Below, in pieces: positions 1,498-8,635 of a stretch of DNA of 64,000 nucleotides. This stretch comes from Candidatus Rifleibacteriota bacterium (GTDB taxonomy: Bacteria; Muiribacteriota; Ozemobacteria; Ozemobacterales; Ozemobacteraceae), in the NCBI GenBank assembly GCA_015233155.1, contig JADFYG010000002.1:110734-174733 (forward strand), written 5' to 3'. Numbering within the stretch: the first letter of the stretch is position 1; each line of letters opens with the position of its first letter. The notes beneath the pieces were generated by a model. It saw only the letters and a list, made by a program, of their open reading frames with translations. It searched no databases and was not told the origin of the DNA. The position numbers were made by a program, and so were the translations under genes.

Positions 1498-3723
1498 TTA
1501 TTGTTGCATGAGAAGTGTCCAAAGCGTGATTCCATTAAACGTCAAAAAGCATATCATTCCGGGAAACAAACTTCCAGTAATCCGAAACATCCAGGTACAA
1601 AAAACGCTGAGAATAAACACCGGCGGTAAAAGAAGTATTGGATGAAGAAGAGCAGAACAGGCTCCATTTAGAAGCAGACCTACTGATCCGGTGAACCCTT
1701 GCGCTCGCAGGGCCTGATCGAGAAAACCGCGAAAAAATACTTCTTCAATCACGGATGCAACCATACATAGTGCAGCAAAAAACACGCCTGTCGCCAATGA
1801 GCCACCGAAAAAACCAGCCAGCCAATTCCAAACGTCCACATTTGAAACGAAGGGATCGAATCCCAATGTCGGAATCAAAAGAAGATATTGTCGACCTAAA
1901 TACCCCGCAACAAGACCTGTAAACAATGCACCGATAAACAGACCGATCGATGGCAGACGACATCCGAGGGCAGTAATGGGTGAAAAAAAACGTCGCCGAA
2001 CATTCAGCAACAACGAACGGGCCAGAACCAGAAGAACGGGAACAGAGGCAAACAACCATGGCCAGAAGGAAAAAACGGCCTTATAAAGAACCCAGTGAAA
2101 AACAGATCCGACAACGACTTGGATACCCAGTGCGCACGCCAGTGGCAATGCGGCATCAATCAGTCTGAACATCGGCTCAGTTCCAGCATCAGGATCGTTG
2201 CGTATAGAAAAGACCTCACAAGCACGATAATGAAGTGTAAGTGCCAATGACATAAAAACCAAAAAAGCGAAAACGGCTGATGGAGAAGCTTCTTTTGTGG
2301 GCAAGCATACAAACATGATCATGCAGGCGAAAATTTTCCCGGTCAGGGATGAACGCATCTGGAGAACTTTTGCATCATAGTCCGGGAAAATCGCCGATGT
2401 GGAAACAGCAGCCCAGACACAGCTGATAATAAACACGGCAATCCAGACTACAAGTGTCACACGATCGGCAATATTCAGCCCCAGATACCATCCGATTCCC
2501 AGGGCAGCCGGCACAAAGAAAATCAAAGCTATGGTTCCCCAAAAGATGGTCTTCTGTCCGATGATCCGACCGGGTTCGATAGGAAGTGTTTCGATAATTG
2601 ACACGCCCTTTCCCTCAGAGCCGACAGCATTCACAGGACCAAACATGCAAAAATAGATTACAGCGGCCGCCATTGCATTCATGACATTGGATGTCTGAGA
2701 AAGCGAAAAAACATCTTTCAATACATATATTTCAGCAAAAATTATGGTCAATGGCAGCAACAATGCGTTCAGTAGTAAATGCATATCATTGCGAAGCAGC
2801 AACGACTCTTTTCGAATCAGGCCATATAGGCGAAATGTATTAGCCGATGCCGGAGCAGATATTCCGGAATTAACCCATGTCAGCCACTGAGCCCTGGCCA
2901 TAGCATTAAAAAAACAGATACCAAGTATGAAACATGCAGACCAGAAACACTGCCAATGCCAGAAAGATCGACCAAAGTCACCATCCATAAGAGTCTCCGC
3001 CAGCATTCGAGCGGGTTTAAGCGGGAATCTAAGCCATGGTTCAAGATTCGCCCACACTCTTATGAGCATTGGAATAATTTGTTCGTTAATAGAGGAAAAC
3101 CAAACACCGTGACCAAGGCCCACGATGACACCAAAATAGCTCAGAAACGCGAGTAAATTCCGGAGCGTAGTCGGACGGAAGAAACGACCGAATGCGACAG
3201 TCAGAAGGGTTACAAACAGACCTATCAGTAGTTCTATCTGGCTATAGAGAAGCGTTCCGATAAAAAGACCCTGCAATGAAAAGCCCTCACGCATAATCAT
3301 TCCAAGCATGCCACCGAGCAGAATTACGGGTGCGGCCCAGTCAACGGAGAGCCGCTCAAAAAGCTTACATATAAGAAGCGCGCTTGGAGATATGGGAAGA
3401 GTACAGAGATATTCATGATCTGTACTCATCTGCCCAAGGTTGAGGGTATACCCCATCAGGAGATCACTTATGAAAACCAGGATTACACCATAAACCAGCA
3501 TCAATGCGAGGGCGGTTATGACCAATTCTTGCGGAATAACCATGGAAGCAGATTGAAAGATTCCTCCTATTCCCTGCCCGATAACAAAACATAGAAATAC
3601 AACCAGCAAAACTATCAATGGAGTTGAATAAAACCAGCGCCATGAACGCAATCCATTCCAGAAAAGGCGCATTTTCATGCGTATTAAAGCTATTGTGGCA
3701 GAGATAGAAGAAGTCATAGACAC
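1498..3723 (-). CDS. ABC-2-type exporter permease-like membrane protein with a C-terminal CPBP (CAAX/Abi) intramembrane protease domain
   Basis: Many TM helices; two permease-like TLPI..K motifs; C-terminal EEVFFRG and SALLH motifs. Confidence 0.7.
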   Translation of the reverse strand: MSMTSSISATIALIRMKMRLFWNGLRSWRWFYSTPLIVLLVVFLCFVIGQGIGGIFQSASMVIPQELVITALALMLVYGVILVFISDLLMGYTLNLGQMSTDHEYLCTLPISPSALLICKLFERLSVDWAAPVILLGGMLGMIMREGFSLQGLFIGTLLYSQIELLIGLFVTLLTVAFGRFFRPTTLRNLLAFLSYFGVIVGLGHGVWFSSINEQIIPMLIRVWANLEPWLRFPLKPARMLAETLMDGDFGRSFWHWQCFWSACFILGICFFNAMARAQWLTWVNSGISAPASANTFRLYGLIRKESLLLRNDMHLLLNALLLPLTIIFAEIYVLKDVFSLSQTSNVMNAMAAAVIYFCMFGPVNAVGSEGKGVSIIETLPIEPGRIIGQKTIFWGTIALIFFVPAALGIGWYLGLNIADRVTLVVWIAVFIISCVWAAVSTSAIFPDYDAKVLQMRSSLTGKIFACMIMFVCLPTKEASPSAVFAFLVFMSLALTLHYRACEVFSIRNDPDAGTEPMFRLIDAALPLACALGIQVVVGSVFHWVLYKAVFSFWPWLFASVPVLLVLARSLLLNVRRRFFSPITALGCRLPSIGLFIGALFTGLVAGYLGRQYLLLIPTLGFDPFVSNVDVWNWLAGFFGGSLATGVFFAALCMVASVIEEVFFRGFLDQALRAQGFTGSVGLLLNGACSALLHPILLLPPVFILSVFCTWMFRITGSLFPGMICFLTFNGITLWTLLMQQ

Positions 3724-3822
3724 AAGTTACCACAATTCCTGAATACCGCAATGTGTCACAGGAATTTGCCAAGGATATTTAATTCTTCGTCGCTGAATAG
3801 CTTGAGCTCGTGGCAAAAAAAC

Positions 3823-3851
3823 GCGGCGCGCCCGGCGGTCGCTGCCCTACC
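3823..3851 (-). repeat. REP-like GC-rich palindromic unit (GTAG type)
   Basis: Minus strand GGTAGGGCAGCGACCGCCGGGCGCGCCGC; near-identical copy at 43924-43951 (+). Confidence 0.6.
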
Positions 3852-3987
3852 GGTCGAGAATTATATGCCCTGGGAAATACCCTTGAACAACTAACTACGT
3901 GCATACGATGCTCAGGGACGATGCGTGGATCGGCCGGGGAGCACGAGCGTAATTCTTGATTGGTAAAAAAAAAGATGGATGAACGCG

Positions 3988-4011
3988 AAAAGCGCCCCGG
4001 AAAGGGGCGCC
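3988..4011 (-). terminator. Intrinsic terminator downstream of the candidate large ncRNA
   Basis: Minus strand GGCGCCCC-TTTCC-GGGGCGC-TTTT, with a further T9 run about 15 nt downstream. Confidence 0.7.
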
Positions 4012-4026
4012 AATCGTCTAAAAAGA

Positions 4027-5129
4027 GTTGAGTGACCGGAAGTCATTAGTCAGCGAATTGGTTTGCCTTACTGAAGGTCATATACGAAGAAAAGTAACGA
4101 ACAAACATTACTGCCTGAACGAAATCCCTCGTGTCGTTTCTTGTTCTCTAAGGTTTTACCACGGTTATGCTATGACGCATATTTGGTTACGCCAAGCCTT
4201 TGATGTTTCAACACCCTCAAGGCACTCGACACAACCGCCGCATGACGGTTTCCCGAACATACTCTATCCCTTTTTGAACTTCAGCCGACTTCAGGGTTTA
4301 CCCTTTCTTCGGCACCAGGTTGGGACCCCAGCACCTTCTTAGGTTTCATTCCCTTTCAGCGCCATCATCACTGGACGAGACAAACGAGACTCCCATCTCG
4401 CCGCTCCCCGCTCGCAGGTTTTGTCCACCTCTCAGCAGGTACCATCATCCGACATGACTGACGAGCTTATCCCATCTCGCCGGCACTCGTAGGGTCCGGG
4501 CCTTCAGAGTATAACCTTAAAACGATCGGTCACTGTCATCCAGTGCCTGACTTCTTCGCCGTTTCCGCCCCTCCATGACTTCCTTCCTCGATTGCGCAGA
4601 TGACCCCTAGTCATCTATCAACACAGCGGCTTTCACCATCTGCAAATCTCGCGCAGTCGCGGCCCCTGGTAACTCTTTCAAATTACTGGCTGCCATCCTG
4701 GGGTTCGGTCGACCTTGAAGTTTTATGCCCGTTTCAAAGCGTTTCGTTCGCACAACAGTTTCACCCATCGTGCGCGACAACAACTCTCCTGGCCTTCCGC
4801 TTCTTCAGGGTATTGCTCCGGGATCGCCCTGGGTTGCCCCTCCCCCTCGTGAGGTTACTATCCCCTACAGGGTTCTTCTGCAATCATCCGGATTGTCTTC
4901 TCGCTTGTGACGAGAGGACATCCCCTCTTGAAGTTTTTGCCTTTTGTAACAGATCTTCACGATTAGAACGCAGAGAGCACTTAGGTCATTGCTTCCCTTC
5001 AGGTCTACATCGATTGTCACCAACCGATAATCAACCATCTGCGGCACTCGATTCCCGCGCCTTACCGGAGCTCGGAAGATCAAAACTTTCGGCCACCAAT
5101 TCGCTTGTCAAAGGACCAGTCACTCAACA
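4027..5129 (-). ncRNA. Candidate very large (~1.1 kb) structured non-coding RNA, family unassigned
   Basis: Own sigma70 promoter and terminator; ends pair (5116-5128 with 4027-4039, 13 bp with one G-U; 5095-5105 with 4052-4062, 11 bp perfect); GNRA-capped and G-U-containing hairpins on the minus strand; repeated internal motif; no credible CDS. Confidence 0.8.
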
Positions 5130-5134
5130 CAGCT

Positions 5135-5163
5135 AATCTATCATTCGACGGGGAAGTTGTCAA
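5135..5163 (-). promoter_or_regulatory. sigma70 promoter with extended -10, driving the candidate ncRNA
   Basis: TTGACA (5163-5158), 17-nt spacer, TAGATT (5140-5135) preceded by TGn; predicted start about 5129, at the 5' end of the terminal helix. Confidence 0.85.
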
Positions 5164-5281
5164 CACATATTTTATTTATTTTTTCAGAGGAGCAAAAACA
5201 GATGGCCCCATTGCCAGTTAGCATGAAGAAAATCCGGCTATCTTTTCAAAGAGAAATTTCTTTATTGCCTCCAGGCCACTG

Positions 5282-8200
5282 TCAAAATGTAATAACCATC
5301 TTGGCATTCGCTATGGTGGCCTCATATCCGGCACCGGTGAGACCACCGGTTGATTTCACTTTTTTTACCTCTCCATCGATTATGCTATCTGTACCGATGA
5401 ATTGAGAAAAATTCAATCCCCCCTCGATATGTGTTTCAGGTTTCACGGATTCAATCGATTTATGCATGATAAATAGCTTATACCGCTGATTTTTTGCCGA
5501 GGGAGTCAAAACAAATGCGGCATTTTCCTGCCATTCCTTACTCGGCATTTTTTGATCTATGACGTTACGCTGAACACCTAATTCAAGAGTGGCGGCACGC
5601 GAAAAAACCCGATTAAATTCGGCAATCCTGCTGACAGTATGCTTGCTATTGTCGCTGAGATACACATCATTTTCATCATGATCTTCCCAGCGTCCGGTAA
5701 CGATATATCCTTCATAGAATTCGTTACGAATTTCAATCCGTTTTAACGTATCAAGCAGTTCGGTCTTCGGTGTAAAAGAGGCGACAGCTATTGCAGTTGG
5801 TGTTGCAACCGATGTTACAATAGCTGAAATAGAAGCAGTCTGAGAAGCAAAATTCAACGATCTCGCCACTCCATTTTCGTAATCCATCGTAATACGAATC
5901 TGTTTGACCGGAACATATTTGAATTCATAACTCCGTCGATCATTGTGTGACAACAAATCTCTGGTCGAGCGGTCTATAAGATCACGACATTTCCAGTCGA
6001 AATATGTTTCTACACGCTCACCAAGACGATAATTCGTCGTAAAATTTGTAGTTTCTTTTCGTACCGGATTCTCGAATCTGCCCACGACTTCCACCGCATC
6101 CTGTGGAGTAACTGGCAGACTTGGAGGCCTCACATACTTTGCCGGGTCAATTGATGGATCACGAACGATCTTGGTCGTATTCTCAACCTTGTATTTGAGC
6201 TGCGTAGTAAAATCCGAAGTCGGCTGATATCTGAATCTGGAATCAGCAACCTCATCATTTTGATCGGTCTTCACCAGAAAATCATGTTCGTTGCGCCACT
6301 GAAAAATACCTCTAGCATTGAATACACGATTGGGATCAAAGTTCATATCGACCGTGTAATTGTTGATCGTCGATCGCAATTTGCCCGGTGTATAATCATC
6401 TTCAAGATTGAGTCGTGAATACCCGGTCGACCATGCAAAACGCTTCTTCTCCGCAGAGTTTATCGAAGTAACCAACTGCAAAACACGCGAACCGGACGCC
6501 AAATTCACACTATCCAGATATGTCGTTCTTTCCAGCTTAGTCTGCGCGGCAATTTTTCCAAATTCATGATCCCACACAAATGCACCGAATTGTTTATCAC
6601 GATTCGTTAGCGGAGTATCCTTGTTCTCACGGTCTATCTGTTGTTCAAGACGCCCCTCGACCTGTGACCCATGTTTGTATTTCCAGGTTACGCCGCCATT
6701 TCTTGCAGCAAAATCGATCCTGGAAAGCGTCGGATCATGCGACATGTTCGTTTTAGATTGTTCAAGGCCCCCGAACAAAGAAACCGTCGGCCGAATCGCG
6801 TAGTTGAAACGCCCAGTTTCTTTTCGAATATCGCTCACAAGGCCGCGCTCTCCAAGCTCTGTCACTCCGCCTTCGCGGCCGATAAGCTTGAAATCTTTTC
6901 CAACCTGGCGAATACCGAGTTCCCCGTCAAGGCGCTCGTTCTTTGCTTTGATTTCCAGTCGGGATGCCGAATCCGTGAAAGCACGGTCCGCGGGGGTCTC
7001 TTCACTGAGCGCATTAGGATCATACTTCGATCGAGAATATTCCCCGGACAGACTGAATGTCTTGTTCAGCCGCCACTGACCATCAAATCCTGCGATGACA
7101 TGATCCATGGGGCGGGCCGTGGCCGTTGCCGTTTCACCACCCTTGGGAACCGTCGCATCGAGTTCGCGCAAAATTGTCATCCCAACGCGATTGGCTTCGT
7201 TTCGTTCGTATACGATTCGCCCTCCATACAGATTTCGCTTGAAAGCAAGCTTCTGATCCGTTACCTCATATTCGATAACAATCCAGGAAGTCGCCTCTAC
7301 CGGTAAAAGATGAGGCTGCAATTTCATGATGCCTTCCTCATAATCAATCAAATAATCAGTTCCACGAACTAATGCTTTTCCGTCTATGCTGGCACGCTCG
7401 GAATTTTGCACCACTGGTTTTCCGAGCAATCGAAACTCCTGCTGCTGTCCTGCTCCGCGAAATTGTTCACGCCGCGCAACTCCTTTCGACTGCGAAAACA
7501 GCAGGACCGTTTTCCAATGTTTGTTTATTGCTCCCTGAGCGAGAATACCGCGCACTTCCTTGTTATTCAAAACAAACTCGGTGTCCTTGAGCGTGAGTGG
7601 AAAATCGCCGATCGTGAAATCCCAGATCGGCCCATTGATGAAAACGGTGAAACGACGATCCTGATCTTCTTTGTCATCAAGAACGGCATTAACCTTGGTA
7701 TTGCGATTGATGTTCCCGTCGATCTCGATATGCAAGCTCTGATCAAGATGAAAGCCGGGAATACAATCATAGTTTTCCGTGGAAAAATGGCCTATGTCAC
7801 CTTTCACGTCGGCTTTTTTCATTGCGAACGTCTTGCTGCCGGAAATATTGAGCTTCCGTTCTTCCGGTTGGATTTCCGAGTCCACTGGCATTTTCGAAGG
7901 AGGTAATTCCAGTGATCCGGAAGCAACCATTTCAGAAATGCGCTTTGAAGCGGATGCTGTAACAGTTTGATTACGCTGATTATTTGGAATTCCCATTACA
8001 GGTTTGTTTAACAAGGATCTATTGTCGGTGGGTATGATTATAGATTTTAGTCTGGATGTCGAAGTGGCTGCTGATATCGGTTTGCCGGCAATAATAGAGT
8101 TCAGCATCGGAATCTTCTTCGACGGTGCTCCGCGTGTCTTGGCGATACTCGTGACTGCCATCGAAGTTCTACGATTAATAGTAAAAGCTGAGCTTGCAAT

Positions 8201-8635
8201 CAATCCTGCGTGTTTTACCATGTAAACTGTGCCGTTCTTTGCTCCGGGCTTTTCCGCCTTCGATATTTTTGAAGACCCGGATGCGTTTTTTGTAGAAATG
8301 CCTTTACGTTTTAATGCTTTTATTGATATTCGCGTACTCGTTTTTTTACATGCAGGATTTGTAATAGATGCCGATTCAGAAGAAATCTTATCGAGAAATT
8401 TACGTAATCGATCGAGTTTCTCCAAAAGAGTGGGAGAAATGCATGGAATCGATGTCAGTTCAGATTTCGATCCAGTATCAGTAGAAACCTTAGCGCAATA
8501 CGCAGGCGCGCCACTTGCGACCAGCAATAGCAGCATGATTAATATGCAACTGCAGCAAGCCCCCCATACAGGCGCGCGAGGAGTATTAGTTCCTCTTTGA
8601 GAGTCGGCGATTCGAACACGCAGGAAATGCTTCAT
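5282..8635 (-). CDS. Large exported protein, probable outer-membrane beta-barrel with a SprA-like segment
   Basis: Signal peptide; low-complexity S/K/T-rich N-region; ISGSK...LDQSL and SERASIDGKALVRGTDYLIDYEEG segments; amphipathic beta strands; C-terminal Phe; ATGA overlap with xerD. Confidence 0.6.
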   Translation of the reverse strand: MKHFLRVRIADSQRGTNTPRAPVWGACCSCILIMLLLLVASGAPAYCAKVSTDTGSKSELTSIPCISPTLLEKLDRLRKFLDKISSESASITNPACKKTSTRISIKALKRKGISTKNASGSSKISKAEKPGAKNGTVYMVKHAGLIASSAFTINRRTSMAVTSIAKTRGAPSKKIPMLNSIIAGKPISAATSTSRLKSIIIPTDNRSLLNKPVMGIPNNQRNQTVTASASKRISEMVASGSLELPPSKMPVDSEIQPEERKLNISGSKTFAMKKADVKGDIGHFSTENYDCIPGFHLDQSLHIEIDGNINRNTKVNAVLDDKEDQDRRFTVFINGPIWDFTIGDFPLTLKDTEFVLNNKEVRGILAQGAINKHWKTVLLFSQSKGVARREQFRGAGQQQEFRLLGKPVVQNSERASIDGKALVRGTDYLIDYEEGIMKLQPHLLPVEATSWIVIEYEVTDQKLAFKRNLYGGRIVYERNEANRVGMTILRELDATVPKGGETATATARPMDHVIAGFDGQWRLNKTFSLSGEYSRSKYDPNALSEETPADRAFTDSASRLEIKAKNERLDGELGIRQVGKDFKLIGREGGVTELGERGLVSDIRKETGRFNYAIRPTVSLFGGLEQSKTNMSHDPTLSRIDFAARNGGVTWKYKHGSQVEGRLEQQIDRENKDTPLTNRDKQFGAFVWDHEFGKIAAQTKLERTTYLDSVNLASGSRVLQLVTSINSAEKKRFAWSTGYSRLNLEDDYTPGKLRSTINNYTVDMNFDPNRVFNARGIFQWRNEHDFLVKTDQNDEVADSRFRYQPTSDFTTQLKYKVENTTKIVRDPSIDPAKYVRPPSLPVTPQDAVEVVGRFENPVRKETTNFTTNYRLGERVETYFDWKCRDLIDRSTRDLLSHNDRRSYEFKYVPVKQIRITMDYENGVARSLNFASQTASISAIVTSVATPTAIAVASFTPKTELLDTLKRIEIRNEFYEGYIVTGRWEDHDENDVYLSDNSKHTVSRIAEFNRVFSRAATLELGVQRNVIDQKMPSKEWQENAAFVLTPSAKNQRYKLFIMHKSIESVKPETHIEGGLNFSQFIGTDSIIDGEVKKVKSTGGLTGAGYEATIANAKMVITF

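Follow-up and report, generated by a model that had tools for sequence, protein, structure and literature searches.

A gene for a structured non-coding RNA (ncRNA) lies on the minus strand of a Candidatus Riflebacteria genome at positions 5129–4019 of the window, the whole 64,000-nt stretch of DNA that was analyzed. Base pairs, and not a reading frame, are conserved among its homologs, and contigs of the size of the RNA were found, in agreement with the original prediction of an independently transcribed large ncRNA. Judged by sequence comparison, the RNA class is new: no homology to families in the catalogue could be detected. The explanation we favor is an abundant, vertically inherited chromosomal structural RNA, synthesized in an rRNA-like manner and assembling into a stable higher-order particle; we give this account as a whole about an even chance of being right.

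Genomic setting

The RNA stretch is located in a 1.56-kb gap between two protein-coding genes on the same strand, and its neighbors in the window are of the housekeeping type.

5282–8635, minus strand: upstream 1,117-aa gene with a weak SprA-like match; adjoins the RNA in many family members, not in the sister families
4019–5129, minus strand: giant structured ncRNA gene (~1,100 nt); homologs measure 1,076–1,113 nt across the same span
1498–3723, minus strand: downstream gene for a 741-aa membrane protein with a CAAX-protease domain; adjacency to the RNA is not conserved

The 1,117-aa gene adjoins the RNA on the same strand in 38 loci, a redundant count in which several genomes appear twice. 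Its conserved product (5282–8635, minus strand) has no Pfam match and reaches 34.6 bits against SprA, the T9SS translocon (cut-off 200); xerD lies upstream of the gene. The neighbors of the RNA in sister families f3 and f7, and of second copies, are unrelated to those of the family locus, and comparison of neighbors across the family, f3, and f7 found no gene linked to the RNA across families. These observations bear on the proposal that the RNA forms an OLE- or SRP-like envelope ribonucleoprotein, with the SprA-like upstream outer-membrane protein or another membrane protein as its partner. The recurrent adjacency fits such a role, as does the precedent of OLE, a large RNA that is chromosomal, abundant, and membrane associated. 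We nevertheless regard it as rather improbable: the RNA has its own promoter and no OLE match, its neighbors are unrelated in other family members, second copies, and both sister families, and the entire region is syntenic anyway, as the linkage to the SRP gene described below indicates.

Two small minus-strand ORFs, 211–780 and 860–1465, have no Pfam match; the first has a weak BamM match and repeated calcium-binding-like DxDxDG motifs. In two f3 genomes (L228:270-2735 and L230:2-1936), the RNA and a gene with multiple S1 domains, similar to ribosomal protein S1, are divergently oriented, and an MBL-fold gene lies downstream; L228 also has a tRNA-Sec gene nearby. Four other f3 genomes do not have this arrangement.

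Transcription signals of rRNA type

The ends of the gene carry the following elements, listed in the direction of transcription.

5164–5180, minus strand: UP-element-like A/T-rich tract ahead of the −35 box; the same tract occurs in the rrn promoters of relative G008
5135–5163, minus strand: sigma70-type promoter, TTGACA-17-TAGATT, with extended −10 (TG)
5116–5128, minus strand: 5′ strand of the outer leader-trailer helix P0; pairs with 4027–4039 (13 bp, one U·G); the ends are complementary in homologs
5105–5117, minus strand: boxA-like antitermination element, GGUCCUUUGACAA, looped out between P0 and P1
5095–5105, minus strand: 5′ strand of the inner closing helix P1; pairs with 4052–4062 (11 bp); pair 5099–4058 covaries
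4052–4062, minus strand: 3′ strand of P1, partner of 5095–5105
4027–4039, minus strand: 3′ strand of P0; most transcript-sized contigs stop at or before it
3988–4011, minus strand: intrinsic-terminator-like GC hairpin with U4; counterparts in homologs

P0 and P1 had both been proposed in the original prediction and are present as listed, whereas its promoter and terminator fared less evenly. The promoter sequence at 5163–5135 is there, but by itself it does not rise above chance in a promoter scan (3 sites found versus 2.6 expected); what sets it apart is that all 20 aligned homologs have TTGAC[A/T], the A-rich tract, and a −10 box in identical placement. The GC hairpin with UUUU at 4011–3988 is likewise present, and a similar hairpin and U tract occur in most homologs, but with only 4 U it fails the rule of the terminator scanner and stays below its threshold. 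The boxA-like element had been missed in that reading, as had the repeated 3×3 loops described in the next section.

The boxA-like word sits about 15–25 nt into the RNA and is found in strict form (TCTTTGA[AC]AA) in 37 of the 74 homologs and in relaxed form in 66. GGUCCUUUGACAA matches the rrn boxA of G008, whose four rrn operons have the same promoter layout and carry boxA (GCTCTTTGAGAA/GTTCTTTGAAAA) preceding 16S and 23S. Two features of an rrn-type antiterminated transcript, a boxA close to the start and a leader-trailer helix, are both found in the RNA. With its promoter, UP tract, boxA, and long helix joining the 5′ and 3′ flanks, the RNA resembles rrn pre-rRNA as described in the available part of PMC10250234; the rrn helix encloses rRNA and its leader is cut off, whereas here a non-rRNA is enclosed and the RNA that accumulates still contains boxA and P1. 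According to the same text, E. coli boxA forms an antitermination complex and is proposed to keep the leader ready for pairing with the trailer.

The f3 RNAs retain the promoter, boxA-like word, terminal helices, and terminator. A NusB gene is present in four of five genomes examined, G030 being the miss. The G030 copies of the RNA (L232 and L233) are shorter, divergent, and without evident boxA by eye, an anecdotal coincidence in one genome with the sole NusB miss. From the promoter, boxA, terminator, folding, and G-U covariation, we infer that the minus strand is the transcribed one.

Conserved multi-junction fold

The minus strand folds at −403.3 kcal/mol compared with −358.6 ± 8.1 kcal/mol for 25 dinucleotide shuffles (z = −5.55); for the plus strand, z was −2.69, again with 25 dinucleotide shuffles. 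From 119 loci, 74 non-redundant homologs were obtained, with identities of 48%–97% (mean 62%). With RNAalifold, 18 sequences yielded 263 pairs, and both sides change in 191 of them. Covariation across all 74 sequences was scored by our own APC-corrected G-test (not R-scape) against 12 tree-based null alignments. Thirty-six pairs scored above the E ~ 1 null level (33 canonical and 3 homopurine), and 13, all but one of them canonical, topped every null value. The consensus fold has 314 pairs in 60 helices and contains 108 of the 150 top covarying pairs; conservation is at least 97% in 163 of 1,049 columns. P1 closes a large junction that carries domains 1–4 plus a 3′ block (domains 5–7).

4939–5093, minus strand: domain 1; UNCG-type hairpin 5070–5065, GUGA GNRA hairpin, conserved GAAACRAUAA loop 4996–4987
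4800–4933, minus strand: domain 2; two purine 3×3 loops, 4929–4927/4806–4804 and 4868–4866/4850–4848
4499–4794, minus strand: domain 3; three purine 3×3 loops, invariant GUGAAA loop 4764–4759
4351–4494, minus strand: domain 4 (superfamily core); two 3×3 loops, T-loop-like loops 4475–4466 and 4428–4417, GG at 4393–4392
4066–4343, minus strand: domains 5–7; two 3×3 loops, conserved AACCAAU loop 4189–4182 with CC at 4186–4185

Four hairpins picked out in the original prediction (5028–5009, 4774–4749, 4686–4669, and 4840–4831) are present where it had placed them.

Ten symmetric 3×3 internal loops were identified, one of which is pyrimidine-rich (columns 69–71) and was left out of the purine count. 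In the nine purine loops, the outer pairs are G·G or A·A in 1,267 of 1,332 cells and swap jointly, and the middle pair is free. The loops are placed 3–5 bp from junctions, behind A-rich linkers. As stated in the portion of 10.1101/098723 available to us, A:A and G:G trans W:W pairs are isosteric and seldom covary, and swaps between them occur where only a sharp-turn backbone is read, for example at the Rev peptide site. By analogy, the outer pairs of the 3×3 loops may adopt trans W:W geometry. The likeness to HIV-1 RRE stem IIB (Sharp-turn) is one of motif only: in both, G·G is interchangeable with A·A beside a canonical helix, but RRE has one such pair, whereas here two flank a variable middle pair in nine repeats of a bacterial RNA. 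The repeated G·G/A·A 3×3 loop is a recurrent structural module, which we could not match to any described counterpart. A K-turn reading of the CUGA/UGA motifs was discarded; the covarying register is the symmetric 3×3 loop.

Further recurrent parts include GNRA loops, a UNCG-type loop, the invariant GUGAAA loop, and two T-loop-like UG..A loops in domain 4. The window's copy deviates from the consensus in both T-loops, and one of them is altered in f3 and f7. A candidate long-range contact joins the CC of the AACCAAU loop (4186–4185) to the GG of a domain-4 hairpin (4393–4392). Over the 74 homologs, one of its pairs is G-C in 71; the other (columns 701–900) is G-C in 60 and A-U in 8 and falls short of the E ~ 1 null threshold. 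We found no pseudoknot of helix length, in that the unpaired columns hold no extra covarying helix of four or more pairs. A pseudoknot at 4179–4168 is not claimed: it competes with a nested helix, and its support is mixed.

Coding potential and known RNA classes

The stretch might not be a functional RNA at all but an mRNA, the 5′ leader of the downstream gene, or a spacer that folds by chance. Plus-strand ORFs of 178 aa and 104 aa speak for this, but neither has a Pfam match, only 171 of 2,196 indels in the 74 homologs relative to the window's copy keep the frame, and an ORF end is common to at most 21 of the 74. The downstream genes vary, and covariation is extensive. We consider this explanation barely credible. 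The homologs instead bear out what had been expected of a structured RNA, namely, covarying helices and no shared ORF.

A scan with Rfam 15 (4,227 families) produced no hit at gathering level anywhere in the window and none in 3700–5500 at E values up to 10, which upholds the original proposal of an undescribed family. There was no relevant Rfam match in 10 further class A loci, 20 loci mostly of class B (the wider superfamily treated below), or 7 sister-family and second-copy loci, and ARAGORN found neither tRNA nor tmRNA in the window. The genome has its RNase P gene on C117 and its tmRNA gene on C144, consistent with the initial remark that the RNA lacks hallmarks of either. An SRP gene was not found in the genome's own 84%-complete assembly, which prompted the idea of a giant SRP RNA, but 30 of 30 relatives carry a normal SRP gene elsewhere. 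Because the genes for all three RNAs lie elsewhere, the RNA is not an expanded form of any of them. Divergent rRNA was rejected with no model match and a longest word in common with the G008 operon of 10 nt. A group I or II intron was rejected as well: there is no catalytic-domain model match and no intron ORF, and the RNA sits between intact genes behind its own promoter. 6S RNA was set aside in view of a weak candidate elsewhere (G000:C75:1293-1494, L024), which scores 33 bits, below the cut-off of 46.4. The literature searched, mainly open-access main texts, contains no description of this family or of a like RNA, and the RNA is in all likelihood undescribed.

Among known large RNAs, GOLLD (RF02032) is similar: it too is a very large bacterial ncRNA with multiple junctions, one half conserved and the other variable, and it tolerates insertions, according to the available text of PMC12286853 and PMC12990946. 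As described there, GOLLD RNAs measure ~700–830 nt, often occur in prophages or tRNA islands, and have many kissing loops; the present RNA is ~1,100 nt, occupies a fixed place on the chromosome, and contains repeated homopurine 3×3 loops, and the window holds no tRNA gene. The GOLLD covariance model, which covers the conserved 3′ domain, gave no match, the best hit (E = 0.88) being elsewhere in relative G006. ROOL (RF03087) is likewise a large ornate RNA of rRNA-like abundance with several multistem junctions. It has a mean length of 581 nt, three pseudoknots, and 10 highly conserved nucleotides in the part of PMC5737381 available, whereas here 163 columns are 97% conserved, in a more restricted range of taxa, and we found no long pseudoknot. 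The Rfam scan produced no ROOL match; a separate search with the ROOL model was also negative, but its positive control gave no match. OLE resembles the RNA as a chromosomal, lineage-wide, abundant large RNA of anaerobes. It is ~600 nt long, belongs to Bacillota, and is linked to oapA. The OLE model found no match, and Pfam scans of the neighbors revealed no oapA-like gene. The RNA therefore fails membership of GOLLD, ROOL, and OLE on model, size, pseudoknot content, and context, although its function may turn out to be like theirs.

Distribution and inheritance

A BLAST search of 41 genomes found the RNA in 20 of 24 family members and in none of 16 others. R1, a covariance model of the core, matched the genome itself, 45 of 50 family genomes, 6 of 9 genomes of f3, and the single f7 genome, and it matched none of 26 genomes from eight other families. 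The RNA is therefore not universal: besides the other families, it was not found in 3 of 9 f3 genomes or in family members G014 (96% complete) and G022 (93%). Second copies occur in G006, G010, G054, and G030. An exact, class-A-specific pattern applied to 185,579 species genomes identified 23 loci, all scoring 598–970 bits on the family profile; where titles name a taxon, it is Ca. Riflebacteria or Ozemobacteraceae, bar one labeled Erysipelotrichia. A second model, R2, gave four weak matches in 35 genomes (E = 0.005–0.065), and the three inspected are protein-coding sequence.

In a 39-row tree, which was compared with the hosts by genus label, genera g3, g4, g6, g8, and g13 each form one side of a supported branch, and duplicates cluster inside g7/g11. 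The window's own copy has a long branch. The RNA and the SRP gene share a contig in 10 of 30 genomes, 26–74 kb apart. This distribution, the arrangement of the tree by genera, and the SRP linkage together are what is expected of a chromosomal gene passed on vertically. A viral origin was rejected on the basis of negative searches: of four pattern scans run on viral contigs, only the second returned any loci (6), which match neither profile nor model, and blastn against phages and plasmids likewise yielded no true match.

Transcript-sized contigs

Small shares of the stretch are present in 11 sequencing runs from nine studies, 10 of them recorded as RNA. In four runs from four studies, contigs of relatives were found in all four RNA libraries, mostly at <95% identity, as pieces spanning 4020 to 5113 with contig depths of up to 422. 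Gaps in contig coverage of the flanks carry no evidential weight because these contigs stem from relatives with different flanks. High-depth contigs in runs X2 and X3 match domain 4 or 6 alone and then diverge, which suggests further subfamilies.

A pattern scan of metagenomes returned at least 123 loci; the matches listed comprise 74 of class A, 44 of class B, and 5 chance hits. The first 80 of these at least 123 loci represent 78 contigs, 49 of which carry a full-length class A RNA. Among the 40 of these 49 that were examined as whole contigs, 35 start at model positions 11–18 (window ~5120–5113), and 31 combine such a start with an end at 1045–1100 (around 4060–4010). Since DNA assembly would rarely stop at both ends of a gene, we infer that these contigs are RNA derived and come from a discrete, abundant transcript. 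BoxA and P1 are retained in them. RNase III processing at +13 was considered and not adopted: contig starts 10–17 nt after the predicted start (35 of 40) equally fit loss during library making, a step that can remove 5′ bases. In L111 (at both ends), L059, L063, L066, and L110, the RNA is joined to unrelated sequence, apparently 23S rRNA in the end pieces of L111; these are probably chimeras of abundant RNAs.

Distant relatives with a common core

Class B comprises at least 44 metagenomic loci whose sequence-profile match to class A is mainly in domain 4, at 20–70 bits; on a joint core model they reach 97–159 bits, partly by construction. In the core, 97.9% of cells are paired, a value equaled in 0 of 500 shuffles, and 17 of 28 pairs show two-sided change. 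The domain-4 core alone survives in all subfamilies.

Subfamily B1 (26 units) has the same domain layout, including the AACCA loop, with homopurine 3×3 loops at 9/14 and no 5′ boxA seen in its contigs. These are 1.9–3.7 kb long, share start and end positions, and contain two paralogous units, each with a closing helix and 67%–80% identical to its partner; the first unit often carries duplicated arms or ~100-nt repeats. Ten contigs (L064, L071, L080, L105, L113, L120, L123, L125, L130, and L135) are whole-contig RNAs of 1.9–2.8 kb with two ~1.05-kb paralogous units. In L116:1-1150, and also in L077, L095, L107, and L125, degenerate ~100-nt hairpin repeats with CUGCUUGCAG in common occupy the first unit; Tandem Repeats Finder missed these arrays. 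Other members of class B are single 1.1- to 1.4-kb units or have long extensions. In seven loci (L082, L099, L124, L152, L157, L167, and L170), a boxA-like word follows the core and precedes a long UUCG-rich extension; this internal word resembles the spacer boxA that precedes 23S rRNA. Insertions of 0.1–2 kb and arm duplication are tolerated in distant members, and the variable regions of GOLLD and ROOL also tolerate insertions according to the available text of PMC12990946. Most class B contigs have no flanking genes; L138 is on an 11-kb contig.

Large repetitive expansions, tandem copies, and contigs lacking flanking genes are what might be seen if the RNA were a domesticated or selfish element (intron, satellite, or viroid like) or an inert nucleotide store with no specific task. 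Its patchy occurrence in the phylum and lineage-specific duplicates point the same way, and certain motifs seem akin to domain I of group II introns. No intron, ribozyme, or viroid model matches, however, there is no ORF, and no true viral, phage, or plasmid match was obtained. The locus is fixed, and purifying selection on non-canonical pairs is strong. A viroid-like circular RNA and its concatemers were rejected specifically: the tandem units are diverged paralogs, and none of the seven contigs with extra ends that were checked is circularly permuted, the extra parts missing the model and resembling assembly chimeras. An element with no task of its own is accordingly a poor candidate, though not a negligible one.

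Survival of the core across subfamilies, together with the 163 highly conserved columns, could also mean that the RNA is a catalytic or tRNA/ribosome-handling machine, in which the domain-4 core with its two T-loops would be the active or tRNA-elbow site and the rest an RNase P-like scaffold. Signals of rRNA type would then couple the level of the RNA to ribosome synthesis, and large conserved RNAs are often catalytic, as noted in the accessible part of PMC5737381. The details do not fit well: the tRNA-elbow double T-loop described in the available text of PMC3664808 requires one AG..A and one UG..A loop, both with two free residues in front, as in RNase P, T-box RNAs, and the L1 stalk, whereas both loops here are UG..A hairpin loops. 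One T-loop differs in f3 and f7, there are separate RNase P, tmRNA, and SRP genes, complementarity to G008 rRNA never exceeds 10 nt, and the window has no tRNA gene. We judge such a machine to be unlikely, while giving it some weight.

Discussion

The preferred account, a structural RNA that forms a particle, comprises four steps. In the first, sigma70 RNA polymerase would initiate at the rrn-like promoter, and a Nus antitermination complex would be loaded at the boxA, an element present in the sequence whose function is predicted. Antitermination would aid the crossing of 1.1 kb of untranslated RNA and the closing of the 5′ and 3′ helices. In the second, the RNA would fold, as covariation indicates, into a multi-junction structure of ~314 pairs around the domain-4 core. 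We are nearly certain of these two steps. In the third, the nine 3×3 loops, with their interchangeable G·G/A·A outer pairs, would create backbone surfaces of the sharp-turn type. These surfaces, together with GNRA loops, T-loops, A-minor contacts, A-rich linkers, and the GG/CC loop-loop contact, would pack the domains and could provide a recurring docking site for further RNA copies, for many copies of one protein, or for both. In the fourth, the product would, like GOLLD, ROOL, and OLE, form a multimeric scaffold or cage, with the tandem paralogs of the distant subfamily serving as co-transcribed subunits. The packing by 3×3 loops and the scaffold or cage could equally well prove right or wrong.

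By analogy with what is described in the available parts of PMC12286853, PMC12990946, and PMC5737381, the RNA most plausibly works like GOLLD, ROOL, and OLE. Counting against a particle, the cages of GOLLD and ROOL use several kissing loops, whereas one long-range contact of 2–3 bp was found here. A particle is also made less secure by the fact that no gene is linked to the RNA across families, that the RNA is not universal, that B1 has no 5′ boxA, and that the window's own copy is divergent. More tentatively still, and with the balance somewhat against it, the RNA may be the first representative of an ancient superfamily of cellular RNAs on the kilobase scale. These would use the ribosomal transcription machinery and build a new kind of ribosome-sized RNA or RNP particle from a repeated homopurine 3×3 module. 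Riflebacteria would have a homo-oligomer, and other uncultured lineages a form with two co-transcribed subunits and expansion segments.

In the available text of PMC5737381, a survey from 2017, only rRNA, GOLLD, and group II introns are given as surpassing the 581-nt ROOL in length or complexity. At ~1,100 nt, the RNA exceeds the GOLLD RNAs listed in the accessible part of PMC12990946, and its distant members reach 2–3.7 kb. In contrast to GOLLD and ROOL, it has the behavior of a core gene of the chromosome. In vitro synthesis and imaging of the RNA are feasible, so that the role of large RNA-only assemblies becomes testable in a non-phage family. With rRNA-type transcription spent on a fourth giant RNA, the cell probably runs a process that has not yet been described.
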